A stretch of DNA of 59,143 nucleotides from a virus (IMGVR_UViG_3300031589_000002:1-59143); one strand, 5' to 3'; numbered from the stretch's first letter, positions 1,715 through 21,033 are shown. Program-made: numbers and translations. The notes: generated by a model from the letters alone, not told the origin.

Positions 1715-1724
1715 ATTTTATGTA

Positions 1725-2693: not shown

Positions 2694-2699
2694 GGGTGT

Positions 2700-3050: not shown

Positions 3051-3051
3051 T

Positions 3052-3501
3052 TTATAATTTGTCTTTGTTAAATTTATCTATCGCATGTGCGTATACTTTG
3101 TCTACATAAGTTTTGCGCTTTCCTATAACACTACGTTTAGCATCAATAGGCATTTCTTCTTGGCAAATCAATATCTTGTATATCCTATTGATTAATCTCT
3201 TACCTCGAAGAGATACTTTATATTTGTTATGATCACCTAAGCGGCCATTACCTTTATGTATCTTTTCTACCCAGCCTTCTCTTTGTAGCCTGTAAAAGCG
3301 CTGTCGGTCCCAATGATAATACATTGTGCCGTTCTGAAAATCTTTTATTGTAAAGTATTTTATAGGATCTAGATAAAATAACAATTCCAAATCTGAAATG
3401 GATATATCATTTTCTTTGCAAGCCCAACGTGAAACAAGTCTATAATATTTAAGAAAATCAACTTTAAGCTCACCTCTTTCTAAAAAATCATCTCTGTCCA
3501 T
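3052..3501 (-). CDS. Winged-helix (MarR-like) DNA-binding protein, putative
   Basis: ISISDLELLFYL...FYRLQREGWVEK...YKVSLRGKRL pattern resembles a MarR-type wHTH (by eye). Confidence 0.5.
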   Translation of the reverse strand: MDRDDFLERGELKVDFLKYYRLVSRWACKENDISISDLELLFYLDPIKYFTIKDFQNGTMYYHWDRQRFYRLQREGWVEKIHKGNGRLGDHNKYKVSLRGKRLINRIYKILICQEEMPIDAKRSVIGKRKTYVDKVYAHAIDKFNKDKL

Positions 3502-3761
3502 TATAAGACTATAATAACGTCCTGCTCCTGTATAACTTTAAATATTTTTTTATTAATTTCAATGTTATGTCCCGCAATACGATCGTAGTATATTTTGTCT
3601 CCCTCTACAATGCCTTCAACACGCACACCAACTGACTCTACGTCAGCGGTGCGGTATCTTATATCTTCTCTATGGTTTTCTGCTAAAAGCAGGCCACCTT
3701 CTGTTTTTTGTATCTCTTCCTTTATCTCGGAAATTATAATGTAATTACCTATCGCTTTCAT
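3501..3761 (-). CDS. groES: Co-chaperonin GroES (Cpn10)
   Basis: KTEGGLLL mobile loop, V.SVG..V..I.EGD.I.Y and final DVIIVL; overlaps groEL. Confidence 0.9.
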   Translation of the reverse strand: MKAIGNYIIISEIKEEIQKTEGGLLLAENHREDIRYRTADVESVGVRVEGIVEGDKIYYDRIAGHNIEINKKIFKVIQEQDVIIVL

Positions 3762-5343
3762 AATCTCTAATATTTGAAATTACACAATCAGTTGATAAGA
3801 TAGTTGTTGCTACCGAAACCGCATTTTGTAGTGCAGACTTAGTAACTAGCACGGGATCAATAATACCTGCTTTACGCATGTCTTTAACTTTTCCATCAGT
3901 CACGTCTACTCCTGCTCCCCATTTATCTAGATCTTTATAGTTTGCTGGGTCTAACCCGGCATTTGTCAAGATGCGCACAAATGGTGAGTGCAATGCTCTT
4001 TTTATAATCTCCACCCCAATCTCTTCGCCTTTATTGGCTGTGTTTACTTTTAGAGTGCTAGATAAAAAACACAATGCTGAACCACCTCCAGGAAGTATAC
4101 CTTCCTTCTTAGCAGCTCTAACTGCGTGTATAGCATCATCTACCCTGTCTTTCTTTTCAGAGACCTCTACTTCAGTGTCACCGCCTACGTAGACAATAGA
4201 TACGCCTCCGTTTAGAATAGCTAGTCTGCTTTCTAAGTGTGGTCGCATAACGTGATGTTCGTCCTCCTCTAATTGAGATTGTAAATACTCTACGCGTTCT
4301 TTAACTCCTTCTGCTGCTTCCGCAATAGCTAGAGTAGTCCCGTCGTTATCTATGATGGCCTTGTCGGCTCTTCCTAACACTTCAGGGGTGATATTATCTA
4401 GAGAGTCTCCTAAACCTTCATCAATAACAGTAGCACCCGTTAGAAGGGCAATATCATCAAGTACATCCTTCCGTTTCAGTCCGAATGATGGAGGATCAAT
4501 AATATTGCACTTAATATTGCCTTTTACGTGGTTCATCGCAAGAGCTGATACAACCTGCTGATCGCAAGGGGCAATGAGTAGCAATGCTCGATTGGACTTG
4601 ATTGCATACTCTAATATTGTTTGTATTCGTCGAACGTTAGACACTTCGGACGAACATAGAAATACAAGCGGCTTATCTAGCTCACTTAATTCTTTTTCTT
4701 TATTAGTATGGAAATACATACTTTTAGTCGTAGACTTAATATGTGTTCCGTCAACTGCTTCGATATAGGTTTCATTACTTGGACTTGTTTCCATTGTAAC
4801 TACACCGTTATCACCAGCTAATTTAAAAGCCTCAGCAATAAAGTCTCCAAGTAAGGGATCGTTATTGGCTGATATGCGTGACACATGATTTAATCGTTTG
4901 TCATCTACATCTACACCTTTCTTAGTAAGCGCATCTACCGTAAGTTTAGTAAACGCAAGCATACCGTTTTTAACATCACGAAACGAGTACTTCTCTGCAT
5001 CTAAGCCAAAGTAATTTTTAATTACTGACTGTGCTAATACCGTTGAGGTTGTTGTTCCATCACCAGCTTTCGATGCCGTTTGTCTAGACGCTTGTTTAAG
5101 CATAGTCACACCTAGGTTCTCTACTGGGTCTTCTAAGTTTATATAGTTTGCTACGGTTACACCATCCTTTGTAACGTGAGGGTTACCGAAGTCATCTTCT
5201 AATACTACCGTACGACCAGACGCACCTAGTGTACTGCCTACTGCTTCTGCTAATTTGTTTATTCCTGAGATTAGTCCGTCTTTAGCTTCTTTCTTAAAGC
5301 TTAGTTCTTTGACTATCTTCGGGGATCCGAATTGTATTGCCAT
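3745..5343 (-). CDS. groEL: Chaperonin GroEL (Cpn60)
   Basis: VTKDGVTVA, AGDGTTTSTVLA, EKKDRVDDA, GILPGGG, GIIDP motifs; no C-terminal GGM tail. Confidence 0.97.
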   Translation of the reverse strand: MAIQFGSPKIVKELSFKKEAKDGLISGINKLAEAVGSTLGASGRTVVLEDDFGNPHVTKDGVTVANYINLEDPVENLGVTMLKQASRQTASKAGDGTTTSTVLAQSVIKNYFGLDAEKYSFRDVKNGMLAFTKLTVDALTKKGVDVDDKRLNHVSRISANNDPLLGDFIAEAFKLAGDNGVVTMETSPSNETYIEAVDGTHIKSTTKSMYFHTNKEKELSELDKPLVFLCSSEVSNVRRIQTILEYAIKSNRALLLIAPCDQQVVSALAMNHVKGNIKCNIIDPPSFGLKRKDVLDDIALLTGATVIDEGLGDSLDNITPEVLGRADKAIIDNDGTTLAIAEAAEGVKERVEYLQSQLEEDEHHVMRPHLESRLAILNGGVSIVYVGGDTEVEVSEKKDRVDDAIHAVRAAKKEGILPGGGSALCFLSSTLKVNTANKGEEIGVEIIKRALHSPFVRILTNAGLDPANYKDLDKWGAGVDVTDGKVKDMRKAGIIDPVLVTKSALQNAVSVATTILSTDCVISNIRDYESDR

Positions 5344-5382
5344 TTAATTTGATTTAATTGAATAAAATTTATAAGATATATA

Positions 5383-5736
5383 TTAGCAGTTCCATTTACG
5401 ACGTGCTGCTCTACCACGCTCTGATTTCCATGATTTGGATCTAGCACAAAAAGCTTTACGTCTTTTAGCTGCTTTACTTCCTTTCTTAAGTTTAGAGGGA
5501 GGTGTTGTTACAGCTGTCTTTAATTTAGAACCTGGGTTGTCTTTTCTATACTTAGCTACACCCTTAGCTGTCATGCCACCACCAGCTTTACCACCAGTGC
5601 CACTGCCTGATTTAACCTTAGCGTAATAGCCTTTTGATTTTTTACGAGACGGTGCTTTACCTTTCTTCCGTTCTAGAGGAGAACCGCCTGCGCAGGTGCA
5701 CGTAGCATGCTTTGCTGTTAATGGTATTGCTTTCAT
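5383..5736 (-). CDS. Small Lys/Arg-rich phage protein
   Basis: Highly basic; GGMTAKGVAKYRKDNPGSKLKTAVT...RRKAFCARS...WNC is a motif I recognise from marine phage hypothetical proteins. Confidence 0.8.
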   Translation of the reverse strand: MKAIPLTAKHATCTCAGGSPLERKKGKAPSRKKSKGYYAKVKSGSGTGGKAGGGMTAKGVAKYRKDNPGSKLKTAVTTPPSKLKKGSKAAKRRKAFCARSKSWKSERGRAARRKWNC

Positions 5737-5972
5737 GTAGTATTGTATTTCTTAGTTCCTTTACCGTGACCACCTCTATTAGCAGCAACGCTAACAAACT
5801 TTTTCTTATTGTGATCCCAGTCTTTACCTTTTATATTTATCCCCTTCTTAAGTGCATCGCGTCTTTTCTTTTGTGTCTCCGCCTTCATAGCTCTACGCCG
5901 GGGAGTTTTAGCATATGCAAGATCACGGGCCGCTTTTTTCTTACGAGCCGCTGGAGATAATTTTTGTGGCAT
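5733..5972 (-). CDS. Small basic protein with degenerate HNH-like KDWDH...NRG motif
   Basis: ORF track; overlapping start/stop with both neighbours. Confidence 0.7.
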   Translation of the reverse strand: MPQKLSPAARKKKAARDLAYAKTPRRRAMKAETQKKRRDALKKGINIKGKDWDHNKKKFVSVAANRGGHGKGTKKYNTT

Positions 5973-6115
5973 TATTTATTGTACCCGCCGTAGCTAGAGT
6001 TTTTTTGTTTTTTTAAAGGCACTGACATTCTTTTAAGAGGTCCTGTTTTTGTTTCGGCTCTTCCTGCCATTTTCTTAAACACTCCAGGTGTTACTGTTTT
6101 TCCTTTTGTTCCCAT
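5972..6115 (-). CDS. 47-aa basic protein (not in ORF track)
   Basis: MGTKGKTVTPGVFKKMAGRAETKTGPLKRMSVPLKKQKNSSYGGYNK; fills the gap exactly, its TAA overlaps the next ATG. Confidence 0.7.
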   Translation of the reverse strand: MGTKGKTVTPGVFKKMAGRAETKTGPLKRMSVPLKKQKNSSYGGYNK

Positions 6116-6119
6116 AATT

Positions 6120-6374
6120 TTATTTTTTCTTTTTAATAGATGAAGTGCGCTTACCCATACCTGTGCGTTTCTTCTCTGATACAGCTTTTCGCTTTTGAGA
6201 AGAACTCATTTCGTTCCATGCTACAGGCGTAGACTTTGATATTCTAACCGAGGGTCTGCACTTCTTTATTTTCTTATTCTTAGTAGAACCGCAAGGGTTA
6301 CCTTTTTCGTCAGTCCATTTTTCTTTAAACCACCGTTTAAGGTTTGCTCCCTTTTTAGTTTTACTTACTGCCAT
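6120..6374 (-). CDS. Small basic protein (LKRWFKEKW..PCG..KCRP type)
   Basis: ORF track; motif typical of conserved viral basic proteins. Confidence 0.75.
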   Translation of the reverse strand: MAVSKTKKGANLKRWFKEKWTDEKGNPCGSTKNKKIKKCRPSVRISKSTPVAWNEMSSSQKRKAVSEKKRTGMGKRTSSIKKKK

Positions 6375-6375
6375 T

Positions 6376-6792
6376 CTATTTTTTCTTTAATTCCTTATAA
6401 GCTGCATCTCTGTCATCAAAATCCAATGCTGCTTTAAGTATGATCTTATCCATTACGTTATCCTGGTTCTCCAAAATAGTCCTCTGCAAATCAATGATCA
6501 TATTCTCTAAGTTATCCTTAGCTGCTACCAGTTGTTCTATCTGGTCGCTTTTCTTTTCTACTTCTGTTCTAAGCGCGTTTACGTCATCCGGTTTACTTCC
6601 AGTGATAGTAGACACAACTAAACCAATTGAAGCTGATATGGTACCTATGAGCATCATCACTACCTCTTTATTACTCTCTAGAACTGGGTACTTCATCATT
6701 ATAAATATAATGGACATAACCAGTAAGAATATAAATAGTGATCCGACGTAGTGTCTTAATTCTTTAGCGACTCCGTTAGTAGGTAGTTTCAT
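6376..6792 (-). CDS. Two-TM membrane protein with C-terminal coiled coil
   Basis: Two hydrophobic stretches followed by heptad-rich helix. Confidence 0.7.
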   Translation of the reverse strand: MKLPTNGVAKELRHYVGSLFIFLLVMSIIFIMMKYPVLESNKEVVMMLIGTISASIGLVVSTITGSKPDDVNALRTEVEKKSDQIEQLVAAKDNLENMIIDLQRTILENQDNVMDKIILKAALDFDDRDAAYKELKKK

Positions 6793-6794
6793 AT

Positions 6795-6935
6795 CTATTT
6801 GTTTTTTCTACACTTAGCAATCGCGCCCGACGCATAAGCGCTCGGGAACACCTTGTATTGTTTCTTTACTTTATGGTAGCAGGCATCCTTTTTAAATAAA
6901 GGGGATGTAGCTTGTGGGCGGTTTGCTTTTTTCAT
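6795..6935 (-). CDS. 46-aa basic protein (not in ORF track)
   Basis: MKKANRPQATSPLFKKDACYHKVKKQYKVFPSAYASGAIAKCRKNK; the DACYHKVK..FPSAYASGA motif is familiar from marine phages; fits the gap. Confidence 0.75.
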   Translation of the reverse strand: MKKANRPQATSPLFKKDACYHKVKKQYKVFPSAYASGAIAKCRKNK

Positions 6936-6947
6936 AGTGTATTGTAG

Positions 6948-7199
6948 TTAGATCTCTTCGGTCTCGACCTCTTCGACTTCCGCTTCCGCTTCTACCGATG
7001 CAATCAATTCTTTAGAGAACGCTGATTCTGCGAACTTTAGCTGTTCTAAGCCAAATTCAGCAGTACCTATTTTATTACGTAAGTCATACACGTGGTTAAC
7101 CATCAACTTTTGCGGGTCGGTGAGTTCACTCTCGTTGTAATCTTTACTGTTAATAGTAATAACTTGTTCTTTGATTTCTTCTGTTTTCTTTTTAGTCAT
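6948..7199 (-). CDS. Acidic hypothetical protein
   Basis: ORF track; AT-rich TAAATTATATATT leader; acidic C-terminal tail. Confidence 0.75.
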   Translation of the reverse strand: MTKKKTEEIKEQVITINSKDYNESELTDPQKLMVNHVYDLRNKIGTAEFGLEQLKFAESAFSKELIASVEAEAEVEEVETEEI

Positions 7200-7230
7200 A
7201 ATATATAATTTAATTGGTTACATGTTTTTT

Positions 7231-7420
7231 AATCATAAGGGCACCTCAGTCCAATGAAGGTTACCAGGTACCCCATGACTCTACTTTGAATAGTGCAACG
7301 ATCTGTACGTTCACTGCCTCAACCACTTCCTAGGTGGTATCTGAAAGGAACTAAGCAAAAAAGCAACTATATGACACCTGCCTCGATGGGGCAGCCTTAA
7401 CATAACGTGTCCATTAAGGT
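7231..7420 (-). ncRNA. Candidate structured RNA with two pseudoknots and two hairpins, family unknown
   Basis: GC-richer intergenic block with helices 7395-7400/7414-7419, 7378-7382/7390-7394, 7373-7377/7407-7411, 7327-7331/7346-7350, 7322-7326/7334-7338, 7292-7315 and 7231-7279. G-U pairs form on the minus strand only. Confidence 0.55.
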
Positions 7421-7436
7421 AGCGATTCTTAAATAG

Positions 7437-7597
7437 TTACTTTTTCTTTGTCTTACGAACAGGTTTCTTTTTAGCAACCTTCTTTTTAACTGTTTTCTTC
7501 TTAGGCTTCTTCTTTTGAAGTGCAGACTGTAACTTATTAGCAGCTGCTCCTACAAGCGCTTTCTTAGCAATAGCCCAAGTATTAATGGTAATGGCAT
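7437..7597 (-). pseudogene. Histone-H1-like Lys-rich ~53-aa ORF interrupted by a 1-nt frameshift (possible sequencing error)
   Basis: ATG CCA TTA CCA TTA ATA CTT GG(G) GCT ATT GCT AAG...; adding one G at 7574-7576 gives MPLPLILGAIAKKALVGAAANKLQSALQKKKPKKKTVKKKVAKKKPVRKTKKK. Span is 161 nt (3n-1). Confidence 0.65.
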
Positions 7598-7619
7598 ATG
7601 TGTGTGTTTTAAATTAGTA

Positions 7620-8010
7620 TTTCATATATAAAAGTAAAGTGTTGCATTATACATTTAGCAACGATATCGTAATATAGAAGCCATATGTGCAACGTATGCG
7701 GCATATTATCGTATTATTAGTGACGTTTGTTACATTTTATCGATGTATTGTCATTATTTATACGTTCGTACTACGTTATTGTATGTCATACTGTCATGAC
7801 ACTACGTTATATTCAGTACATTGTTATATACACTGCATAATATGTAACGTATTGATTGTATTGTTATTAAGTTAGCAATAAATATTGTAGTTGCTTGCAC
7901 ATTGTGTAATTGCTTTATAACACATTGCATTATATTTGGTGATTAATATGTTTTATCACATTATATTTATATAAACGTATGCTTAAGTACTTATATAATA
8001 TATATTACAT
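7620..8010. other. Divergent non-coding control region (candidate origin or genome-end region)
   Basis: AT-rich with no credible ORF; strand switch point; several TACGTT/AACGTA hexamers. Confidence 0.5.
7817..7853 (-). promoter_or_regulatory. Inverted copy of the phage early motif (perfect AATACGTTACA, degenerate second half)
   Basis: tgtaacgtatt at 7843-7853 is the exact reverse complement. ATAACAATGTA follows 15 nt downstream (7/11 match to GTGATAATATA). Confidence 0.4.
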
Positions 8011-8013
8011 AAA

Positions 8014-8044
8014 TTTGTAAAAAGGTATAATTTTTGTATATTTG
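8014..8044 (+). promoter_or_regulatory. Bacteroidota housekeeping-sigma promoter (-33 TTTG, -7 TAnnTTTG)
   Basis: TTTG 8014-8017, 19-nt spacer, TATATTTG 8037-8044, matching the Bacteroides/Flavobacterium consensus. A second TATATTTG lies at 7931-7938. Confidence 0.6.
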
Positions 8045-8050
8045 TAATAA

Positions 8051-8086
8051 AATACGTTACAGATCGCAGTTTATTGTGATAATATA
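8051..8086 (+). promoter_or_regulatory. Phage early promoter motif, copy 1
   Basis: AATACGTTACA-N14-GTGATAATATA. Confidence 0.85.
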
Positions 8087-8114
8087 TATGTAAGTAACAA
8101 AGTAACAGTCTTAC

Positions 8115-8230
8115 GGAGTTTTATAAAAGTGATTGCCTCCACAATATTAATCATTGACCCTTAACCGGGAATCGCCAGGGTTCGATAAACAACCTCGAGC
8201 ATGACTAAATAAAGTCCTAGAAATAGGCAT
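8115..8230 (+). other. Structured 5' leader or small RNA candidate downstream of the first early promoter
   Basis: Possible pseudoknot GGAG/CTCC with AGTGATT/AATCATT; helices GACCCT/AGGGTT, TCGA/TCGA, GACT/AGTC and CCTA-GAAA-TAGG. Confidence 0.3.
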
Positions 8231-8236
8231 TAAATT

Positions 8237-8425
8237 ATGAGAATACTACGAGAAAAAAGATTAAATCAAGAGTTAATAAACGGTGTTACACTAACTGAAT
8301 TAAGATCCAAACTATACGATGAAATGTATATATTTCAAGACAACGACAGATTGTTGCAAGCAATAGGTGTTAATAAAGATATTAAAATAGTTGAAGAGTG
8401 GATTGAATTAGATAAAAATAATTAA
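8237..8425 (+). CDS. Early hypothetical protein
   Basis: ORF track; TAAATTATG leader. Confidence 0.7.
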   Translation: MRILREKRLNQELINGVTLTELRSKLYDEMYIFQDNDRLLQAIGVNKDIKIVEEWIELDKNN

Positions 8426-8429
8426 TAAA

Positions 8430-8465
8430 AATACGTTACAAACCATCTAAGATTGTGATAATATA
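8430..8465 (+). promoter_or_regulatory. Phage early promoter motif, copy 2
   Basis: AATACGTTACA-N14-GTGATAATATA. Confidence 0.85.
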
Positions 8466-8487
8466 AGTGTAATTAAAAATATAAACT

Positions 8488-8664
8488 ATGAGATTTCCAA
8501 ACACATTTACTACAGAAAACAAAATAACTTTTTACACACAAAGAAAAAGAGAAATGACTAAACAGTTTAATAAATTTTCTAAACTAAATAAAATAGAACA
8601 TTCTAATAAATTAAAGAAAGAAATAGAAATCTGTGAAGTAGAATTATTAAACTTAAATAAATAA
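8488..8664 (+). CDS. 58-aa early protein (not in ORF track)
   Basis: MRFPNTFTTENKITFYTQRKREM...; directly after promoter copy 2. Confidence 0.65.
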   Translation: MRFPNTFTTENKITFYTQRKREMTKQFNKFSKLNKIEHSNKLKKEIEICEVELLNLNK

Positions 8665-8668
8665 GAAT

Positions 8669-8770
8669 ATGAAAACAGAATACACTTTTGAAAGTTTAAA
8701 TGAGTGGAGTAATGGAGATTTAGTATGGTTAGTACTAGAAATGCAAGAAGAATTAAAAAATAAAATATAA
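8669..8770 (+). CDS. 33-aa early protein (not in track)
   Basis: MKTEYTFESLNEWSNGDLVWLVLEMQEELKNKI; shared TAAGAATATGA leader. Confidence 0.6.
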   Translation: MKTEYTFESLNEWSNGDLVWLVLEMQEELKNKI

Positions 8771-8774
8771 GAAT

Positions 8775-8921
8775 ATGAGAATGTTTAAAATAACTAAAGT
8801 ACAAACTTGGAATAAAAACGGAATCCCTACAAATTGGATTAAGTATATGAAAAGTGAAACAATTGAAAATGTAATAAAACATTTTGGAACTGAAAACATT
8901 TTGGAAGTAGAAGAAGTATAA
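8775..8921 (+). CDS. 48-aa early protein (not in track)
   Basis: MRMFKITKVQTWNKNGIPTNW...; shared TAAGAATATGA leader. Confidence 0.6.
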   Translation: MRMFKITKVQTWNKNGIPTNWIKYMKSETIENVIKHFGTENILEVEEV

Positions 8922-8936
8922 ATAAAATATAAGAAT

Positions 8937-9158
8937 ATGAAAGAATTAAAAGAATATATGGAAGCTAAGAAAAAAGCTAACGCTTTAAAGTGGATGAAAG
9001 TAAATGGCTTCAACACTATCCAAGGATTCACACAGAGCGAGTTTAATGAATCCGTTAAACAAATAAAGCGTAAGACCTCAACAACTAGAAGAAGTCACTC
9101 TAAAGGCAATTTATGGACTCACAATAATTTACCACAAATTAAGCAAGATATCTTATAA
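8937..9158 (+). CDS. Early basic hypothetical protein
   Basis: ORF track; shared leader. Confidence 0.7.
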   Translation: MKELKEYMEAKKKANALKWMKVNGFNTIQGFTQSEFNESVKQIKRKTSTTRRSHSKGNLWTHNNLPQIKQDIL

Positions 9159-9194
9159 AATACGTTACAAAGCAAAATAATAAGTGATAATATA
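9159..9194 (+). promoter_or_regulatory. Phage early promoter motif, copy 3
   Basis: AATACGTTACA-N14-GTGATAATATA, abutting the upstream stop codon. Confidence 0.85.
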
Positions 9195-9195
9195 A

Positions 9196-9333
9196 ATGAT
9201 GAAAATAAATAACCCATACAATAAAAAATTCGAACTATACCTAATAAAAAAAGGTTACAACCTCGACACAATAAGTTTAACCGAAAGCTTGCAACAATTA
9301 AAAATATATAATAAGAATGAAATACGCAATTAA
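9196..9333 (+). CDS. 45-aa early protein (not in track)
   Basis: MMKINNPYNKKFELYLIKKGYNLD...; part of a tightly tiled ORF chain. Confidence 0.45.
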   Translation: MMKINNPYNKKFELYLIKKGYNLDTISLTESLQQLKIYNKNEIRN

Positions 9334-9427
9334 ATACAACTTAGCAATAACGACTCCTAAAAAAAATGAAATGTGTAAATATTCAATATGGATTCCGTGC
9401 GAATGTGAAGAATGCAAAAGATATTAA
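9317..9427 (+). CDS. 36-aa Cys-rich early protein (not in track)
   Basis: MKYAIKYNLAITTPKKNEMCKYSIWIPCECEECKRY; stop adjacent to next ATG. Confidence 0.5.
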   Translation: MKYAIKYNLAITTPKKNEMCKYSIWIPCECEECKRY

Positions 9428-9556
9428 ATGAAGAAAAGAAAGAATACTAGAAAAACAATAGCAAAGCTAACACAAGAAAGAATAAAAGTTATTGAGCATG
9501 AATATTATGAAAGATATAATGCGAATATCCCCCAATGGCAACAAAATATGTACTAA
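9428..9556 (+). CDS. 42-aa early protein (not in track)
   Basis: MKKRKNTRKTIAKLTQERIKVIEHEYYERY...; tiles between neighbours. Confidence 0.55.
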   Translation: MKKRKNTRKTIAKLTQERIKVIEHEYYERYNANIPQWQQNMY

Positions 9557-9557
9557 T

Positions 9558-9761
9558 ATGACAAACACATGGATTTTTTACGGAGACTCGCAAGAAGGAA
9601 TAAGAACTTTGCACTATATTAAAGAATGCAAACGACCTGAAGCAACTAAAGAATATAAAGAAATGATGTTCTTGCTAGAAAATAATACTTACCATGTTAC
9701 TGGATATATGACTAGTAAAAAATGGAATGAAGAAAACCAATATACAAAAGTAATACAATGA
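9558..9761 (+). CDS. Early hypothetical protein (track 9492..9761; likely start 9558)
   Basis: In-frame ATG right after the upstream TAA. Confidence 0.65.
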   Translation: MTNTWIFYGDSQEGIRTLHYIKECKRPEATKEYKEMMFLLENNTYHVTGYMTSKKWNEENQYTKVIQ

Positions 9762-9880
9762 TAAAAACAGAAACCTGCAGTATGTGCAACGAGCTTTTAG
9801 GTGAAGAAGAAGAAAAGTATTTCACCTTTGCTGCACACGAAATGCCTTTATGTATGGAATGTATGCTAAAAGATTGGTAA
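9758..9880 (+). CDS. 40-aa zinc-finger microprotein (not in track)
   Basis: MIKTETCSMCNELLGEEEEKYFTFAAHEMPLCMECMLKDW with CxxC...CxxC; ATGA overlap. Confidence 0.65.
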   Translation: MIKTETCSMCNELLGEEEEKYFTFAAHEMPLCMECMLKDW

Positions 9881-9916
9881 AATACGTTACAAAGCAAACA
9901 CAAACGTGATAATATA
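9881..9916 (+). promoter_or_regulatory. Phage early promoter motif, copy 4
   Basis: AATACGTTACA-N14-GTGATAATATA. Confidence 0.85.
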
Positions 9917-9938
9917 ATTGAATAAAAAAAATAACAAT

Positions 9939-10280
9939 ATGGATTTATACTTAAGCTTAGAAAACAACGAGCTACGAAACTTACACGAAAACTTTACAGA
10001 TGAAGTATGGTTAGCCTTTCATCAAGGTGAAATAAACGACCAAGATGATTTTTATAACTACTTGCACGAATATATTGATAACGCAGTAATATATACTGCC
10101 TCCTGCGAATCAATACTAAGTGGTAATAGTGAATATCATTATGAAGACCACGATTTATATGGCAGACCAGATAATATATCTCAAGCTGCGTTTGCTTGCT
10201 TATATGATTATCTTACTGAAAACGACGACACTGTTGTTTGGTCGCAACTAGAAGAAGTACTAAATGAATCAATACAATAA
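9939..10280 (+). CDS. ocr: Ocr (T7 gp0.3)-like DNA-mimic antirestriction protein
   Basis: 113 aa with 25 D/E, 2 R and 0 K. EINDQDDFYNYLHEYIDNAV.Y.A...S....ED..L........A.LYDYLT aligns by eye with T7 Ocr [25 protein letters not shown]...ED..L...ARIYEQLT (recalled sequence). Confidence 0.7.
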   Translation: MDLYLSLENNELRNLHENFTDEVWLAFHQGEINDQDDFYNYLHEYIDNAVIYTASCESILSGNSEYHYEDHDLYGRPDNISQAAFACLYDYLTENDDTVVWSQLEEVLNESIQ

Positions 10281-10281
10281 T

Positions 10282-10626
10282 ATGACAACATTACAAAAAT
10301 TTGAAGAAGTAGCAAACATTAAGTTTGTAGAACAAAATAGTAACCTTGAAATTGGTACACTACAAACAGCTGATGGCTATGACGTATATTACATTGCTGC
10401 TGATTTACACAACTTAAATTGGGAAAACGAAGTGTACTACTATCAACCAGATTTCGATGCAATTATGAGTGCTATAGACGAACACAGGTTTAATAGCGAA
10501 TTGCTAACAATTTCATGTTATGATGTTGAAGACTACTTTGACGAGTACTATCTGCTTGATTATATACAAGATAACATAGACGAAGATGAGTTTGAAAAAT
10601 TCAGTAATACGTTACAAACTAATTAA
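10282..10626 (+). CDS. Highly acidic early protein (second DNA-mimic candidate)
   Basis: 114 aa, 26 D/E versus 4 K/R, Tyr-rich; directly follows the ocr-like gene. Confidence 0.7.
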   Translation: MTTLQKFEEVANIKFVEQNSNLEIGTLQTADGYDVYYIAADLHNLNWENEVYYYQPDFDAIMSAIDEHRFNSELLTISCYDVEDYFDEYYLLDYIQDNIDEDEFEKFSNTLQTN

Positions 10627-10641
10627 TAACGTGATAATATA
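10606..10641 (+). promoter_or_regulatory. Phage early promoter motif, copy 5
   Basis: AATACGTTACA-N14-GTGATAATATA; the downstream ~18 nt are also identical to copy 4. Confidence 0.85.
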
Positions 10642-10660
10642 ATTGAATAAAAAAAATAAT

Positions 10661-10852
10661 ATGGAAATAAATACAAGTATAACAAAAATAGCAATGAAAT
10701 GTGCTGAACGTACCACCGACTTTGTACTCAACGAGCTTGACGAAATTGTAACATGGCAAATGAGCGACAACGATTTAACTGGCGACGACTTTGAATTGGC
10801 TAAAAGTTTAGCAATCAAAACTATAATTGAAAACATTTACAAAAGAATATAA
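10661..10852 (+). CDS. Acidic early hypothetical protein
   Basis: Track 10643..10852; likely ATG at 10661. Confidence 0.65.
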   Translation: MEINTSITKIAMKCAERTTDFVLNELDEIVTWQMSDNDLTGDDFELAKSLAIKTIIENIYKRI

Positions 10853-10853
10853 T

Positions 10854-11147
10854 ATGAATGATAAACAAATACACGAGCGTGCTATACACAAAGCTGAATC
10901 TCAAATAAGCTTTATTAAGCTTGAAATGAACGCTTTAGAGCGCGAAGTTCCCTATATGAGTTACACTATAGAAATGATCGAAGGCCAACAAGCTTTTAAA
11001 ATTAAAGAGCTTGATACATGGAGATATATTTTAGATTGTGTTAAAATAGTAGAAACCAAAAGAATGATTGAAGAAGAAAAATACATTAGATCCGGAATGA
11101 CCAATGTTGAGTTATTACAGTCATTAGCAGATTTAAACGCAAAATAA
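10854..11147 (+). CDS. Early hypothetical protein
   Basis: Track 10827..11147; ATG at 10854 follows the upstream TAA. Confidence 0.65.
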   Translation: MNDKQIHERAIHKAESQISFIKLEMNALEREVPYMSYTIEMIEGQQAFKIKELDTWRYILDCVKIVETKRMIEEEKYIRSGMTNVELLQSLADLNAK

Positions 11148-11152
11148 ATATA

Positions 11153-11228
11153 ATAAGAAAATTCAATTTACAATACAATACATTTTTAATATGATAAGAA
11201 AATTCAATTTACAATACAATACATTTTT
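11153..11228 (+). repeat. Tandem 35-bp direct repeat (period 41)
   Basis: ATAAGAAAATTCAATTTACAATACAATACATTTTT at 11153-11187 and 11194-11228. Confidence 0.9.
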
Positions 11229-11252
11229 CAAAAGAAAAAAATTAAACAGATA

Positions 11253-11288
11253 AATACGTTACAAATGAATTACATAAGTGATAATATA
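11253..11288 (+). promoter_or_regulatory. Phage early promoter motif, copy 6
   Basis: AATACGTTACA-N14-GTGATAATATA. Confidence 0.85.
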
Positions 11289-11328
11289 ACTGAAGAAATT
11301 AACGAAATGTTTTTAACATTCGCAAATT

Positions 11329-11523
11329 ATGAAGATAAATAAAAAAAATATAACCGCAATATTAAATAAACCAATGGGTAAATTACTAGTAACATATAAA
11401 GGAAAAACACACGAATATCTAGTTAACACACAAGTCGAGCCCCATGTTGTTGACGACACAATTGAAATGATATTAAAAGCTTTTCCATCTGATGTTCCTG
11501 TTGACTTCCAAGAAATGTGGTAA
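11329..11523 (+). CDS. Early hypothetical protein
   Basis: ORF track; flanked by promoter copies 6 and 7. Confidence 0.7.
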   Translation: MKINKKNITAILNKPMGKLLVTYKGKTHEYLVNTQVEPHVVDDTIEMILKAFPSDVPVDFQEMW

Positions 11524-11524
11524 T

Positions 11525-11560
11525 AATACGTTACAAATAAAATATATAAGTGATAATGAA
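11525..11560 (+). promoter_or_regulatory. Phage early promoter motif, copy 7
   Basis: AATACGTTACA-N14-GTGATAATGAA (2 mismatches at the 3' end). Confidence 0.75.
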
Positions 11561-11870
11561 AGTGAATAAAATAACATTCAGCCAAATAAAATTACGATGG
11601 CAAATACAACAAATGACCTCAGCCTATATACATGCAGAGCAACAGATAATAAAAAAGTTAGCTGATGGCATTGATATTACCGGAGCGAATGAAATTATAC
11701 AAGAAGTACAACAAAATGCAAAAACAATAACACCTAAAGATAAAATAAAAGAAAAGCTTGATGCTCTTAAAATACAAGGCAATAAGTTATTAGAACAAGA
11801 AAAATACGAATTATTTATAGAACTAAAAGAAATATATGAAAAATACAAACAAGAATATGACAGACTTTAA
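11550..11870 (+). CDS. Helical protein with weak UVR-domain-like C-terminus (start may be 11613)
   Basis: KLDALKIQGNKLLEQEKYELFIELKEIY resembles the UVR motif; the annotated start overlaps promoter copy 7. Confidence 0.55.
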   Translation: MIMKVNKITFSQIKLRWQIQQMTSAYIHAEQQIIKKLADGIDITGANEIIQEVQQNAKTITPKDKIKEKLDALKIQGNKLLEQEKYELFIELKEIYEKYKQEYDRL

Positions 11871-12699
11871 AGTAATGCTAGCAAAGCCAGTAGCAAGCGA
11901 AATCAGCTGGCCTAACACACATTTTGTACAACCTAAGCTTGACGGCGTACGTTGTTATATTAATCAACATGGTGCGTTCTCACGCAACCACAAACCATTC
12001 TACAATGCTAAACATGTACTCACTGAGCTTAAGCCTTTCTTCGCAGCCAATCCTCATATTACTCTTGACGGCGAACTTTATAATCATAAGTATCGGGATA
12101 ACTTTAATAAAATCATCTCGCTCGTCCGCAAACAAAAGCCAACCCAAGCTGACAAGTTCGAGTCGGCTAGTTCTTTACAATTCCACTGCTACGACCTTTT
12201 CGATAGCAAACAACCAAGCTTATCGTTTATCGACCGTACGCTTCAAATAACTAGCTATCAAAGTTTATACAAATGGCGTTCTATTCAACTTGTTGATACG
12301 CAAGTTGTATTCAGCGATAAAGATGTTCAAAAGTTTCACAAACAAAATAAACAAAACAAATATGAAGGCTCAATGCTACGCAACAACAACTCTTACGACC
12401 AACGACGATCAAACAACTTACAAAAAGTCAAAGACTGGTCAGACACTGAGATTACGATTACTGGCTTCGTCGAAGGTAAAGGCAAGTTCAAAAGCGGTCT
12501 TGGTAAATTCCTCGGTGTTGATTCAGACAATCGAGTAGTTGAAGTGCCTTGGCCTACTCTTACAATACAACAACGTAAAGATATATGGGCTACGCGTGAC
12601 GACCTTATTAATAAACAACTAACCTTCGAATACTTCGAGCGTACACCATCCGGTGCATATCGTTTTCCTCGAGCTAAAGCAATGCGTAATTATGAATAG
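11857..12699 (+). CDS. lig: ATP-dependent DNA ligase
   Basis: Motif I QPKLDGVRC, III LDGELY, IIIa FHCYDLF, IV EGSMLR, V LQKVK, and C-terminal OB fold ending RFPR. Confidence 0.93.
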   Translation: MTDFKVMLAKPVASEISWPNTHFVQPKLDGVRCYINQHGAFSRNHKPFYNAKHVLTELKPFFAANPHITLDGELYNHKYRDNFNKIISLVRKQKPTQADKFESASSLQFHCYDLFDSKQPSLSFIDRTLQITSYQSLYKWRSIQLVDTQVVFSDKDVQKFHKQNKQNKYEGSMLRNNNSYDQRRSNNLQKVKDWSDTEITITGFVEGKGKFKSGLGKFLGVDSDNRVVEVPWPTLTIQQRKDIWATRDDLINKQLTFEYFERTPSGAYRFPRAKAMRNYE

Positions 12700-12796
12700 A
12701 TCACTAGTAGATAGTGCATGGAATTGTGTGTGCGGCGCACTAAATGCTGGCAACCTTTTATTCTGTGCTAAATGTAATAAAGAAAAAAATGCGTAG
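12692..12796 (+). CDS. 34-aa RanBP2-type zinc-finger microprotein (not in track)
   Basis: MNRSLVDSAWNCVCGALNAGNLLFCAKCNKEKNA = W-x-C-x-C-x3-N-x6-C-x2-C. Confidence 0.65.
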   Translation: MNRSLVDSAWNCVCGALNAGNLLFCAKCNKEKNA

Positions 12797-12878
12797 ATTA
12801 TTATTTAACATGACTCTTGCTAATGAGATTAGTGAAGAAGCAATGCATAAAATATTAGATATTTATTATGGCAGGTAA
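12789..12878 (+). CDS. 29-aa hypothetical (not in track)
   Basis: MRRLLFNMTLANEISEEAMHKILDIYYGR; overlaps both neighbours. Confidence 0.45.
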   Translation: MRRLLFNMTLANEISEEAMHKILDIYYGR

Positions 12879-13011
12879 TAAATATAACTATACAGAATCC
12901 ACCCAACCTAAGATGCTATACACATTGCAGTACACTGGTGCTCAAGGCGATATAGTATCTTTAACGGGTGACTATAAACAAATTATCAATCACATTTTAA
13001 AAACAATTTAA
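12868..13011 (+). CDS. 47-aa hypothetical (not in track)
   Basis: MAGNKYNYTESTQPKMLYTLQYTGAQGD...; TAATG coupling to the next ORF. Confidence 0.5.
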   Translation: MAGNKYNYTESTQPKMLYTLQYTGAQGDIVSLTGDYKQIINHILKTI

Positions 13012-13142
13012 TGAGCTACAAAATATACAACCATTTAGTTTCTAGTAACGAAAAAGTAAGTAAAACAATTAAAGACTTTAGAAAAAATGATAGTAAAAAT
13101 AGGAAACCTAAAAGTGTATTGCACTCGAAAACGAGATCATAA
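13011..13142 (+). CDS. 43-aa basic hypothetical (not in track)
   Basis: MSYKIYNHLVSSNEKVSKTIKDFRK... Confidence 0.35.
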   Translation: MSYKIYNHLVSSNEKVSKTIKDFRKNDSKNRKPKSVLHSKTRS

Positions 13143-13299
13143 GTCTTATCTTTTTCGCAGAATAATGGAATTAAGAACTGAAGTTATTGATGAAGTATTA
13201 ATTGGTACACAAAATAATAGAATACCTGTTAAGCTTTTAAAAGAAAAAGCAAGACTTATTAGAAAGTACAGTAGAAGATTAAAATTAATAAATATATGA
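13087..13299 (+). CDS. Basic hypothetical protein
   Basis: ORF track; ATGA overlap with the sigma gene. Confidence 0.6.
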   Translation: MIVKIGNLKVYCTRKRDHKSYLFRRIMELRTEVIDEVLIGTQNNRIPVKLLKEKARLIRKYSRRLKLINI

Positions 13300-14027
13300 A
13301 GTGGTACAGCCATTCAACATACAAACAACATTTAAAGAGTCTTGATATATATGAAAGAATTGACGCAATAAAAGCTCCCTATATAGAGTGGCCTAAGTCG
13401 TTAGCAAACATATTTGAAAGATCTTACCCGAGGGTAGGTGTACTTGACCTTACTGATTTAATTCAGGAAGGTTATGTATCTTTTTATAAAGCATGGAATA
13501 AGTTAGATTGGGAACTTATAAATTCTAGAGCAGAAACAGAAAAACCTGGTATAATTACAAACTATTTAAAATTGAACATCAAAAACGGAATTAGAAGAGC
13601 CATAGCTCGCGATAGAGACACTATTAGAATTCCCGAGGCTTATTACACTACTAGCCCACACGGAGACGCCCACGGAGGTAAATATGATAATAACTATCAA
13701 ACAGATATTTTTTTAACACAAACATTTTCATCATTTTTTAACCAATATTATTTAGATGTTGCCGATGAACCTTATAACTACGACCAAGAGCTGCTAAACG
13801 ACTTCTTACATACAGTTATGGACAATGAACTTAAAGGACAAGAGAAACAAGTTTTATGTGCATTTTTTGGTATAGACGAACCTTATGATAAGAAAGCATC
13901 GGTATCTAAAATAGCCGAACGGTTTCATAGATCTGAAATATGGGTTAAGAAAATAAAAGCTAACGCTTTGAAAAAGATGACAAAACCACACGTTAAAGAA
14001 ATAATTGAAAAATACTTGGAAGAATAG
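13296..14027 (+). CDS. Phage-encoded sigma70-family RNA polymerase sigma factor
   Basis: Region 2 DLIQEG and IRRAIARDRDTIRIP (cf. RpoD ITRSIADQARTIRIP); region 4 L...EKQVL..FFGI...S..KIAERF..SEIWVKKIKANALKKM. Confidence 0.88.
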   Translation: MKWYSHSTYKQHLKSLDIYERIDAIKAPYIEWPKSLANIFERSYPRVGVLDLTDLIQEGYVSFYKAWNKLDWELINSRAETEKPGIITNYLKLNIKNGIRRAIARDRDTIRIPEAYYTTSPHGDAHGGKYDNNYQTDIFLTQTFSSFFNQYYLDVADEPYNYDQELLNDFLHTVMDNELKGQEKQVLCAFFGIDEPYDKKASVSKIAERFHRSEIWVKKIKANALKKMTKPHVKEIIEKYLEE

Positions 14028-14060
14028 TATACTTTTTCCTTTTTTTATGTAATATATATT
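14027..14060 (+). promoter_or_regulatory. Candidate middle promoter just downstream of the sigma gene
   Basis: GTATAC-N17-TAATAT (ATGTAATATAT); shares TAATAT with the early motif but has a different upstream element. Single copy. Confidence 0.3.
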
Positions 14061-14074
14061 ATAACTAAATACTT

Positions 14075-14326
14075 ATGAATACACATACAAATGTAGACTA
14101 CGACATCGAAGATGACTCTATAGACAGAGGTGATGCGACAAATACAACTGAGGGCTTAAGTTACTATAACATAGACCTTAAAGATAGTCCTTCGGACATT
14201 GAAACCTTAAACATAAAGGTTGAGCAAGACTATCATAATTCGTACTATAATACTAGAACAAAGTCTTATGGTTCAAGAACAATTAAACTCGCTAATAAGG
14301 ATTGGCACAAATTAAATAAAGTATGA
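14075..14326 (+). CDS. Hypothetical protein
   Basis: ORF track; ATGA overlap with erf. Confidence 0.7.
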   Translation: MNTHTNVDYDIEDDSIDRGDATNTTEGLSYYNIDLKDSPSDIETLNIKVEQDYHNSYYNTRTKSYGSRTIKLANKDWHKLNKV

Positions 14327-14898
14327 AACTACACGAAAAATTAAGTTTAATCCAATCGGAATTTAAAGCAAAAAAATCGCGCTTTAATAATTTCGGTAAG
14401 TACAACTTCCGGTCTGCTGAAGACATATTGGAAGCATTGAAACCTTTTAATAAACAGCATGGTGTTTATTTTACCGTAAGTGAAAGAATTGTAGTTGCAG
14501 ATACAGAGTTTCCTATTATGGAATCAATTGCAACTATATCTGACGGTACGGATGCTATACAAGCTATAGCTATTGTAGGTGTTGATTTAGCTCAGAAGGG
14601 TATGCAAATGCCTCAAAAGTTTGGTAGCGCATCTAGTTATGGTAAAAAATATAGTTTAGGAAATTTACTATTAATTGATGATACTGCAGACGCTGACGCT
14701 ACTAATAGTCATGGTAAAGGCGCTATTAACAGAACAATACCAGGAAGCGGTAATGCTTTTGGAAAAACAAAACCAGAAATTACAGATGCAAACATTGATA
14801 AAGCTAAAAAGTTTTTAGCTAATGGTGGTAAAGTAGAAACCTTACAGCAAACATATTTAATGAGTGCTGATATATTAAATAAATTAAAGAATGGATAA
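14323..14898 (+). CDS. erf: ERF-family single-strand annealing protein
   Basis: FGKYNFRSAEDILEALKP and QKFGSASSYGKKYSLGNLLLIDDTADADA (ERF signature). Confidence 0.88.
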   Translation: MKLHEKLSLIQSEFKAKKSRFNNFGKYNFRSAEDILEALKPFNKQHGVYFTVSERIVVADTEFPIMESIATISDGTDAIQAIAIVGVDLAQKGMQMPQKFGSASSYGKKYSLGNLLLIDDTADADATNSHGKGAINRTIPGSGNAFGKTKPEITDANIDKAKKFLANGGKVETLQQTYLMSADILNKLKNG

Positions 14899-15622
14899 AC
14901 AAGAGATATTAGACAAACTGCGTGATGATAATCATTATTACGGTGAATTCGGTAAAACTTATTTAAGTAACAGTGACATTATGGCGTTGTTAAATAATCC
15001 TCTTGATTTCAAGAAGCAGTCGCCTCCTACAACACCTATGGTTATTGGAGGTTACTTTCACACATGCATCCTTGAGCCTCATAAGCTTGACAAGTACAAA
15101 ATAGTTAAAGCATCAACACGTAATACGAAAGTTTACAAAGAAATCGCAGGTAGCGACATCTGTCTTTTAGAAAAAGAAGCGGACGACATACAGTTAATGC
15201 GAGAAATTGTATTAGAGAATGAATTGTTTCAAGATCTTATACAAGAAGGTAATGTTGAATATGAAGTACCTGGCTTAGTAGAGCTTGAGGGTATGACGTG
15301 GAAAGGTAAGGCTGATATCGTTAACCACACTCACCAATTGGTTATAGATTTAAAAACAACAGGTGATATTAATAAATTTACTAATTCCGCTTATCGTTTT
15401 AATTACGATAGCCAAGCATATATTTATTCAAAAATGTTTGGGTACGATTTAGTTTTTATAGTTATTGACAAAAAGACTCATCAGTTAGGTCTGTTTGACT
15501 GTAGCGATAAATTTATTCAATCTGGTATGAATAAAGTTTCAAGTGCAGTGCAAATCTATGAAGATTACTTTGTTAATGGCGACGGCGATTTTAGCCAACA
15601 TTATATATCGAAAACACTTTAA
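14891..15622 (+). CDS. PD-(D/E)xK exonuclease, RecE/exonuclease VIII-like
   Basis: LSNSDI, G..FHTCILEP, KGKADIV, IDLKTT, YDSQAYIY motifs; next to erf. Confidence 0.85.
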   Translation: MDKQEILDKLRDDNHYYGEFGKTYLSNSDIMALLNNPLDFKKQSPPTTPMVIGGYFHTCILEPHKLDKYKIVKASTRNTKVYKEIAGSDICLLEKEADDIQLMREIVLENELFQDLIQEGNVEYEVPGLVELEGMTWKGKADIVNHTHQLVIDLKTTGDINKFTNSAYRFNYDSQAYIYSKMFGYDLVFIVIDKKTHQLGLFDCSDKFIQSGMNKVSSAVQIYEDYFVNGDGDFSQHYISKTL

Positions 15623-15643
15623 TACTAATTTAAATTTAATTTT

Positions 15644-15811
15644 ATGGCAAGAACAAGAAAAAGAACTTGTGACGTTACAGGAGTAACTACAAGTATGAAC
15701 AATTTTTACAGCAACCAATCACATGTTAAAGCTGTAGATAATCTACGTAGATCAAGTGGAGCTACGAAAAAACAAATGCGTACAATGTTTAACAATTTAA
15801 CAACTTACTAA
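15644..15811 (+). CDS. 55-aa basic hypothetical (not in track)
   Basis: MARTRKRTCDVTGVTTSMNNFYSNQSHVKAVDNLRR...; TAATG coupling to the SSB gene. Confidence 0.7.
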   Translation: MARTRKRTCDVTGVTTSMNNFYSNQSHVKAVDNLRRSSGATKKQMRTMFNNLTTY

Positions 15812-16128
15812 TGGCAAGTATTATATCAGCTAATATTGATTTAACTAAAGTAGATAAATCAAAGATTTATGAAGGTAAGAAAGGTAAGTACTACCCTATT
15901 ACAATAGTTCTTAATGATGAATTGGGACAGTTTGGAGATTCCGGTTATATACAAACCGAACAAACTAAAGAAGAGCGCGATGCTAAATCACCTAAATCAT
16001 TTTTAGGTAATGTAAAAGTTGTGTGGTCTAACGGATCTAATGTAGGAGCAGCCCCCAGAGAAGGCGAACCTCAACAGCAACAGCAGAATTCTTCACAGCC
16101 TAGCCCGGGGCCAGATCTACCATTTTAA
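15811..16128 (+). CDS. ssb: Single-stranded DNA-binding protein, putative
   Basis: Small beta-rich core, Q/P-rich linker and C-terminal DLPF tip; lies between recombination genes and primase. Confidence 0.65.
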   Translation: MASIISANIDLTKVDKSKIYEGKKGKYYPITIVLNDELGQFGDSGYIQTEQTKEERDAKSPKSFLGNVKVVWSNGSNVGAAPREGEPQQQQQNSSQPSPGPDLPF

Positions 16129-16220
16129 TGGATAGTGGAGAATATATAACAAAAGTCGTTGATAAGGACGGCAATGTTACATTGGTAGAAGATTAACACA
16201 ACTCTTTAAATAGAAGATAT

Positions 16221-20232: not shown

Positions 20233-20234
20233 TT

Positions 20235-21009: not shown

Positions 21010-21033
21010 ATTATTACCTAAAAAAATAAATGA

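Follow-up and report, generated by a model that had tools for sequence, protein, structure and literature searches.

Which transcription machinery reads the seven near-identical, promoter-like sites that precede the non-structural genes of an uncultured marine phage? The sites lie between positions 8051 and 11566 of IMGVR_UViG_3300031589_000002:1-59143, here called the window, which is a whole IMG/VR virus record of 59,143 bases (a podophage; completeness estimate 92%; G+C content 35.8%). An earlier note on this DNA had described them as bipartite early promoters of a non-Bacteroidota type, read by a phage-specific factor. We find that the seven sites form a promoter-like element with a set orientation, conserved across a clade of marine podophages of flavobacteria. 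The reading we favour, and to which we give about an even chance, is that they are promoters read by the host core RNA polymerase together with a phage-encoded sigma factor, primed by host-type promoters and amplified through a feedback loop.

The pattern AATACGTTACA-N14-GTGATAAT, scanned with a tolerance of up to three mismatches, matched exactly seven times, always on the plus strand and always with zero mismatches, at the positions that the earlier note had listed (8051, 8430, 9159, 9881, 10606, 11253 and 11525). The expected count was 0.03, and 0 of 100 shuffles reached seven. A position weight matrix built from the seven sites scored them at 47-64 bits, and the best other place on either strand reached 9.0 bits. 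This indicates a discrete site family with no weak or degenerate members in the genome. Alignment of the seven copies extended the consensus to AATACGTTACAaA-N12-GTGATAATATAAnTGaA, a longer conservation than first stated, with at least 19 invariant positions and additional conserved bases upstream (AATAC) and downstream (ATAAnTG). The copies, where nt stands for nucleotides and ORF for open reading frame, are:

8051..8092, plus strand: copy 1, within the long divergent intergenic region; the ORF at 8237 comes after a 153-nt leader
8430..8471, plus strand: copy 2, 4 nt past the stop of ORF 8237-8425; next ATG at 8488
9159..9200, plus strand: copy 3, directly past the stop of ORF 8937-9158; ATGATG at 9196-9201
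9881..9922, plus strand: copy 4, directly past the stop of ORF 9758-9880; next ATG at 9939
10606..10647, plus strand: copy 5, with ORF 10264-10626 ending in its spacer; next ATG at 10661
11253..11294, plus strand: copy 6, in a 181-nt gap, after two 35-nt direct repeats; ATG at 11308 or 11329
11525..11566, plus strand: copy 7, the variant GTGATAATGAAAGTGAA, 1 nt past the stop of ORF 11329-11523

The sites resemble sigma-70 promoters in their second block. The parse TTACA(A/G)-N17-TAATAT with a TG one base upstream, proposed in the earlier note, fits six of the seven copies; copy 7 carries TAATGA, so that the -10-like block reads TGaTAATAT in six copies and TGaTAATGA in one. The trailing ATA is likewise present in six copies and replaced by GAA at 11525. 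An equally valid parse, chosen by the consensus scan, is GTTACA-N16-GATAAT (GATAAT at 5 of 6 positions). A -35-like hexamer, TTACAA or GTTACA, stands 17 or 16 base pairs (bp) upstream in all seven copies, and its TT is lost in a variant allele of relatives. The spacer varies in sequence and is fixed in length, as the earlier note had it: the gap is 14 in every copy.

All seven copies lie on the coding strand and head ORFs. The statement that most sit at or near an upstream stop codon holds, with four (8430, 9159, 9881 and 11525) starting 0-4 nt after an ORF stop; by our own ORF calls, the ORF preceding 10606 ends within the spacer, and 8051 and 11253 stand in longer gaps. The ATG usually follows the predicted transcription start by ~15-20 nt. 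At copy 3 the ATGATG sits on the predicted start site, and its mRNA may therefore be leaderless. Copy 6 has a conserved leader downstream and orthologous copies in relatives, and the variant GTGATAATGAAAGTGAA of copy 7 is also conserved in relatives. No hairpin was found at any of the seven sites (minimum free energy 0 to -3.3 kcal/mol, z -0.5 to +1.0 against shuffles), and no terminator-like site was seen on the plus strand inside the array. The leader of copy 1 (8084-8236, 153 nt) contains no called ORF (GAGTTTTATAAAA..TTGCCTC.ACAATATTAA), and the same leader sequence follows a copy of the motif in five relatives (L031, L032, L035, L064 and L066). A search for structured RNA in 8090-8236 was negative (fold z -0.1; Rfam and tRNA scans empty). 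The accessible part of a preprint on the crAss-like phage phi14:2 describes plentiful early non-coding RNAs at a comparable location (bioRxiv 10.1101/2020.03.07.982082). Note that two direct copies of a 35-nt AT-rich unit (11153-11187 and 11194-11228) occupy the gap upstream of copy 6. A lone inverted AATACGTTACA also occurs on the minus strand at 7846-7856, with no second block at the right distance; this half-site (7856-7846) was discarded as part of the system, as it is absent from L072, L074, L075 and L076.

The element recurs in related phages with the same geometry. An exact scan of IMG/VR for ACGTTACA-N14-GTGATAAT returned 63 loci on ~38 contigs, mostly arrays of 2-7 copies; a few matches were single and chance-like. 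When gaps of 8-20 were allowed across all fetched relatives, the two 8-mers were separated by 14 nt in 155 of 155 occurrences, which represent 90 distinct contexts because the loci overlap. Beyond the bases that the search demanded, 72-94% of contexts retain AAAAT ahead of the first block, AA behind it, and ATAA, TG and a number of A's behind the second. Counted from the ACG, the first ATG is mostly at 52-57 nt, implying a leader of ~15-20 nt, near the median 5' untranslated region of 24 nt given for Flavobacterium psychrophilum in the accessible part of PMC9723704.

A candidate reader is encoded on the same strand (aa, amino acids; kb, kilobases):

13296..14027, plus strand: phage sigma factor, RpoD-like, 243 aa, with matches to regions 2 and 4; 1.7 kb beyond copy 7

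Region 4 of this protein matches Pfam Sigma70_r4 at 25.5 bits (cut-off 24.1; 28.3 bits in six frames), and region 2 matches Sigma70_r2 at 16-17.5 bits, below the 24-bit cut-off. Further matches were to PHROG 351 (2e-12) and NCBIfam RpoD_Cterm (4e-12, far below the NCBIfam equivalog cut-offs), and SigA chains in the PDB aligned at 1.4e-5 over residues 47-119 (region 2) and 163-241 (region 4). Region 2 holds the core-binding stretch DLIQEGY and a TIRIP stretch; the protein lacks residues aligned to the TG-reading part of the SigA chains. The family is environmental only, with 86 protein clusters and no functional name beyond 'sigma factor', and it divides into two subfamilies (A and B) that are ~29% identical and both linked to the same motif. 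The virion sigma-like domain that the earlier note had offered as another possible reader is not supported: six-frame searches with Sigma70_r4 and Sigma70_r2 at E values up to 10 found only 13296-14027, and Pfam and PHROGs gave no sigma-like match in the structural genes.

Motif and sigma gene proved tightly linked. With the sigma used as a handle, 25 viral and 80 metagenomic loci were collected, giving 86 distinct sigma loci. Sites upstream of the sigma gene on its own strand numbered 115, compared to 4 downstream on that strand and 0 on the opposite strand, and the nearest site lay 1.6-4.0 kb ahead of the sigma start in related loci. Where 5 kb or more of upstream sequence was available, all 19 sigma loci carried the array on the same strand ahead of the gene; where 3 kb or more was available, 32 of 35 did. 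Conversely, 8 of 10 motif-bearing IMG/VR records searched whole contain the sigma, and in the other two the array runs up to the end of the contig. Four cultured relatives (phi38:1, elemoE, MW202828 and phi14:2) have neither the sigma, by profile search, nor the motif; for phi14:2 the scan covered its 50-100 kb half, for the motif only. No comparable repeated dyad was found in MW202828 (whole), elemoE (first 50 kb) or phi38:1 (first 40 kb). Motif and sigma are thus present or missing together among these relatives, all of one clade, and this co-occurrence and the strict synteny make the 13296 sigma, one of the earlier note's two candidates, the best candidate for the reader. Three loci (L113, L119 and L120) with other or weak sigma matches had no array within the 3-8 kb at hand and are uninformative.

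Bacterial chromosomes do not appear to use the element. Among 185,579 species genomes, the 18-base motif occurred only as arrays on contigs of 3 metagenome-assembled genomes (MAGs), and these contigs resemble binned phage contigs. The 14-base core gave 3 matches in 201 genomes of one Bacteroidota family, compared to 8 for the reversed control, and is therefore not enriched. One Bacteroidetes MAG, G010, carries the motif three times at contig ends (C35 70314-70416 and C30 239-268; L124, L127 and L130). Its copies have an identical spacer, two of them 73 nt apart, unlike the variable spacers elsewhere, and may represent a terminal repeat of a binned phage contig.

The host lineage follows from the cultured relatives. 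By terminase and portal, the closest cultured phages are the Flavobacterium elemo phages, then Cellulophaga phi38:1/phi40:1/Calle, followed by Tenacibaculum, Maribacter and other Cellulophaga phages. All 86 relative records with a named host or source organism derive from Flavobacteriaceae. Gene leaders are A-rich and G-poor, and only 3 of 74 called genes have a Shine-Dalgarno core ahead of them, which fits Bacteroidota translation as described in the accessible text of PMC9723704. The Bacteroidota host assumed in the earlier note is thereby borne out and narrowed to Flavobacteriaceae.

The array does not match the known host promoter types. In F. psychrophilum, 1194 mapped transcription starts fall into six classes (three TAnnTTTG variants, a sigma-54 class, TAnnTTGY and an extracytoplasmic function (ECF) type), and the sigma factors listed are sigma-A, sigma-54 and 7 ECF factors only, with no class resembling the array in the part of the source at hand (PMC9723704). 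TAnnTTTG occurs in none of the seven copies, and in the best register the array -10 block shares 3 of its 6 specified positions. The sites are therefore not of the Bacteroidota housekeeping type, in agreement with the earlier note.

Host-type sites were, however, present directly upstream of the array:

7910..7938, plus strand: candidate host-type (sigma-A) promoter, TTG-N18-TATATTTG
8015..8044, plus strand: candidate host-type promoter, TTG-N19-TATATTTG, with a predicted start ~1-2 nt before copy 1

Two such sites in the 451-nt head region compare with 0.08 expected. The 8015 candidate shares the TATATTTGTA box with the host-dependent promoters of phi14:2, which read TTG-N~20-TAnnTTTG in its genome record and correspond to the host-polymerase-dependent middle promoters described in the accessible part of the phi14:2 preprint (bioRxiv 10.1101/2020.03.07.982082). 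Relatives keep a conserved head element, AAAAAGG(T/G)A(T/C)A.TTTTG, ahead of their first copy. The description of the array as 'early' therefore needs loosening: the array does stand at the start of the rightward module, but it has host-type promoters directly ahead of it, and with a phage sigma as reader its copies cannot be the very first promoters to fire. Counts of host-type promoters in the early module were 0 in 16.5 kb of the window, 5 in elemoE (0.8 expected), 2 in phi38:1 (1.0 expected), 0 in MW202828 (0.5 expected) and 2 in L097 (0.4 expected). The idea that sigma-bearing phages have lost these promoters and sigma-less ones keep them was dropped, as the result was mixed.

No host-type promoter was seen ahead of the leftward structural genes. 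On the minus strand at 7943-7965, a leftward block, ATAATGTGATAAAACATATTAAT, shares GTGATAA with the rightward sites. The 4 of 4 aligned genomes keep this block unchanged, unlike its upstream flank, and it may serve the leftward genes as promoter.

A phage RNA polymerase was sought as a further possible reader. None was recognized by Pfam or PHROGs among all called proteins, which include two giant ORFs:

24656-31261, minus strand: giant ORF, 2201 aa, at the end of the structural module; no family
34712-41755, minus strand: giant ORF, 2347 aa, with thrombospondin type-3-like repeats (PDB 2rhp, 7.6e-16)

The catalytic motif DFDxD of the crAss-type enzyme is absent from the 2201-, 1394- and 688-aa ORFs, though a very divergent enzyme may be present, and the 2347-aa ORF has only a DLDDD, inside calcium-binding-type repeats. 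The giant ORFs gave no polymerase match in the PDB with phmmer. In a protein atlas, residues 1-2000 of the 2201-aa ORF matched unnamed clusters best (0.82), with a weak lead (0.76) to LPD38 polyvalent-protein domains. A virion polymerase was accordingly set aside as the reader, none of the motif, PDB and atlas searches having given a polymerase signal. With no recognisable phage RNA polymerase, the host core enzyme likely transcribes the module and a sigma factor must choose the sites.

These observations fit the following scheme. Transcription of the rightward module would begin at one or both host-type promoters, at 7910 and 8015, and read-through would reach the sigma gene at 13296. The newly made sigma would then bind the host core polymerase and direct it to the seven copies of (A/G)TAC-N4-CAAA-N12-GTGATAATATAA, with a predicted start at about the conserved TG(A/T)A, ~7 nt past the -10-like block. 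With the array upstream of the sigma gene and no terminator separating them, the loop would amplify itself and drive small genes of the takeover type along with those for replication, without dependence on the host promoter grammar.

Several points weigh against this reading. One is a second allele of the upstream box found in relatives, ACAC[AT]ACA or ACACAGCA. Among 159 plus-strand GTGATAAT sites in sigma loci, 118 have the canonical box, 17 the variant, 16 a box one mismatch off canonical and 8 an unrelated sequence. Every copy is of the variant type in L111 (5 of 5) and L197 (4 of 4), and both alleles occur within one genome in L158 (3 variant, 1 canonical) and L163 (1 of each). The allele does not follow the sigma. 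The sigma of L158 differs from that of L100, a locus with 4 canonical boxes, in one N-terminal residue (99.6% identity); between L205 (variant) and L207 (canonical) the sigmas share 97.7% identity and an unchanged region-4 helix. Conversely, phages that share a box differ freely in the residues at the start of this helix, and a search for covariation between sigma and upstream box in 103 sigma loci found none, so that no matched change supports the assignment. The subfamilies A and B likewise differ strongly in regions 2.4/3.0 (B lacks TIRIP), at the place expected to read a -10 block, and are associated with the same GTGATAAT block. An AlphaFold2 model from 11 sequences (mean pLDDT 58.5; residues 105-162 below 50) was confident only in region 4 and gives no support to a TG-reading region 3. 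Also unfavourable is that strict TAnnTTTG sites in the head are confined to the window and L097, other relatives having one-mismatch sites or none, and that the co-occurrence of motif and sigma lies within one phage clade, so that the events are not independent. Seven metatranscriptome runs hold 5-12% of words, and the four examined as assembled contigs contain relatives at 90-99% likeness; being contigs only, with possible DNA carry-over, these libraries say nothing on start sites or timing. Dense promoter arrays before small genes are, in well-studied phages, usually early promoters of the unmodified host enzyme. Finally, purified C. baltica RNA polymerase transcribes a T7 A1 promoter fragment in vitro, according to the accessible part of the phi14:2 preprint (bioRxiv 10.1101/2020.03.07.982082), so a flavobacterial holoenzyme is not blind to classical promoters.

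The alleles move by recombination, as indicated by the mosaic relation of L158 to L100: the variant copies lie in a segment covering the first 2.3 kb of the module that is 79-92% identical, and identity is 94% over the remainder, which holds one canonical copy and the sigma. On the simplest reading, (A/G)TAC-N4-CA(A)A and the -10 block are all that the reader requires. The upstream box may then resemble TTGACA by accident, and there is room for a second reader. The sigma-70 geometry of the earlier note thus keeps its -10 half, and its -35 half is weakened, since the variant allele replaces the TT of TTACA. We regard as doubtful a bolder version in which these phages carry a portable promoter grammar foreign to the host phylum, a diverged RpoD-like sigma leads Bacteroidota core polymerase to extended -10 promoters of the classical type while amplifying its own synthesis, and the interchangeable box alleles imply a second reader, MotA-like or virion-delivered.

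Whole ORFs are gained or lost beside the copies. In relatives represented by RNA-library contigs, joints were seen from 8478 to 8934, 8481 to 8669 and 8423 to 8934, and whole small ORFs differ between L158 and L100, phages with near-identical sigmas. The copies of the element bound exchangeable gene cassettes.

Three other explanations were considered. The host holoenzyme itself, through a sigma-A of wide tolerance or an uncharacterised host sigma, might read the sites as true early promoters, with the phage sigma serving others, such as late ones. The location of the array, where classical phages keep host-read early promoters, speaks for this, as do the activity of the C. baltica enzyme on T7 A1, the failure of the box alleles to track the sigma, and the identity of the motif across phages whose sigmas share only 29% of residues, as expected for a conserved host reader; the phage sigma could moreover be needed ahead of the leftward structural genes, where no host-type promoter was seen. 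Yet the half-match of the -10 block to TAnnTTTG, the lack of any such class among the mapped F. psychrophilum starts, the result in the 201 Bacteroidota genomes, the absence of the 18-base motif from host chromosomes, and the sigma-less relatives that infect the same bacterial family without it all run counter to a host reader, and we consider this explanation unlikely.

Another phage product might read all or part of the site, either a virion-delivered factor available from time zero or a small early protein on the upstream box combined with a sigma on GTGATAAT, much like MotA-type sigma appropriation in T4. A reader of this kind would suit the two discrete box alleles (ACGTTACA and ACAC[AT]ACA), which change over in blocks together with the first 2.3 kb of the module, and there are candidates in the ~16 family-less small ORFs behind the sites and in the family-less 2201-aa ORF with its LPD38 lead. 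However, L158 and L163 carry both alleles, and therefore one cell must read both; no candidate belongs to a polymerase or DNA-binding family, and the six-frame searches found no second sigma-like region. This explanation seems rather improbable to us. That the sites are not promoters at all, being operators of a regulator or boundary sequences for cassette recombination, is very improbable: the exchange of whole ORFs beside the copies and an information content very high for a promoter would agree with it, but the site is asymmetric, strictly oriented with 0 on the opposite strand, fixed in its spacing and in its distance to start codons, and equipped with an extended -10-like TGnTAATAT, and a promoter array can recombine at its repeats as a side effect.

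Phage factors of the sigma-70 family with private promoters include gp28 of Bacillus phage SPO1 and gp36 of coliphage phiEco32. Like these, the system proposed here combines a small sigma (regions 2 and 4), encoded in the early/middle region and redirecting the host core polymerase, with a uniform phage-only promoter that the host sigma leaves unused. It differs in having an RpoD-like sigma and a Bacteroidota host, in being known from sequence alone, and in that the promoters lie upstream of the sigma gene (the feedback loop) and head the first gene block rather than later genes. The sites themselves share the geometry of the sigma-70 extended -10 class (TTGACA-N17-TGnTATAAT), with a hexamer TTACAA, the 17-bp spacer, the TG one base before TAATAT and a conserved purine-rich start region. 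Unlike that class, they have at least 19 invariant positions with extra flanking conservation, lose the TT in the second allele, and are paired with a sigma that lacks the residues aligned to the TG-reading part of SigA. T4 middle promoters combine a MotA box with a sigma-70 -10 element; the array likewise has a conserved -10 block and a non-canonical upstream box at about -30/-35, a resemblance only, as no MotA or AsiA homologue was found here. Promoters of N4-type virion polymerases need a DNA hairpin, whereas all seven sites fold no better than shuffles.

Promoters of the Bacteroidota sigma-A class (-33 TTG/-7 TAnnTTTG; F. psychrophilum SM1-3 and the middle promoters of phi14:2) belong to the same host phylum and are represented by the two sites directly upstream of the array; the array copies lack the -7 box, which the host-dependent promoters of phi14:2 have. 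Phage phi14:2, whose early genes are transcribed by its virion RNA polymerase gp66, is a relative in its structural genes and shares the crAss muzzle-like protein, the divergent two-module layout and the giant virion ORFs. It lacks the sigma, and no gp66-like polymerase is detectable here. The accessible part of its preprint reports no common upstream motif for the early transcripts (bioRxiv 10.1101/2020.03.07.982082). Searches of 50,697 phage records by megablast (7000-13000) and tblastn (sigma) gave no match, and no paper was found in the literature library searched that links a phage sigma or such a promoter to flavobacterial phages. The accessible parts of PMC8776804 and PMC7077304 mention neither promoters nor RNA polymerase, 'sigma' being absent from the former and only a reagent supplier's name in the latter, and the word 'promoter' has 0 occurrences in PMC5335546.

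The genome is arranged around the array in two divergent modules:

1-7199 and 24656-59143, minus strand: leftward genes, comprising terminase, portal, structural genes, a crAss muzzle-like protein (Pfam PF25731 and PF25729), the two giant ORFs, lysis genes and GroEL/GroES
1 kb between the leftward genes and the rightward module: divergent intergenic region
8237-24613, plus strand: rightward module served by the array, with ~16 small ORFs of no known family followed by replication-type genes

By Pfam and PHROGs, the small ORFs are followed by ligase, sigma, Erf, exonuclease, primase-helicase, ThyA, MazG and RNR genes; neither database recognized a DNA polymerase gene in the window, and phi38:1 has one annotated. 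A G+C-rich non-coding stretch (7222-7440) separates the first leftward gene from the AT-rich control region; it is well conserved in L072, and its summed contig depth, 773, was the largest among 30 bins in one RNA library. It folds no better than shuffles (z -1.2 and -1.0 for the two strands) and has no Rfam match. Within the control region, a lysine-rich ORF of ~53 aa lies on the minus strand at ~7437-7600, in a stretch absent from L072, L074 and L075 by alignment.

In conclusion, the system joins the known class of phage sigmas with private promoters, and is set apart by its Bacteroidota setting, its classical -10 grammar and its exchangeable box alleles. To our knowledge, little is known of how phages take over Bacteroidota transcription, phi14:2 with its injected polymerase being the only studied case. 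If the favoured reading is right, this clade uses a different solution, in which a private sigma and a sharply defined promoter run the non-structural genes outside the host grammar. The family is common in marine metagenomes (86 sigma protein clusters; 86 distinct loci), and the 243-aa sigma and 42-bp promoter could then serve as an orthogonal expression switch in flavobacteria and other Bacteroidota, for which genetic tools are scarce.

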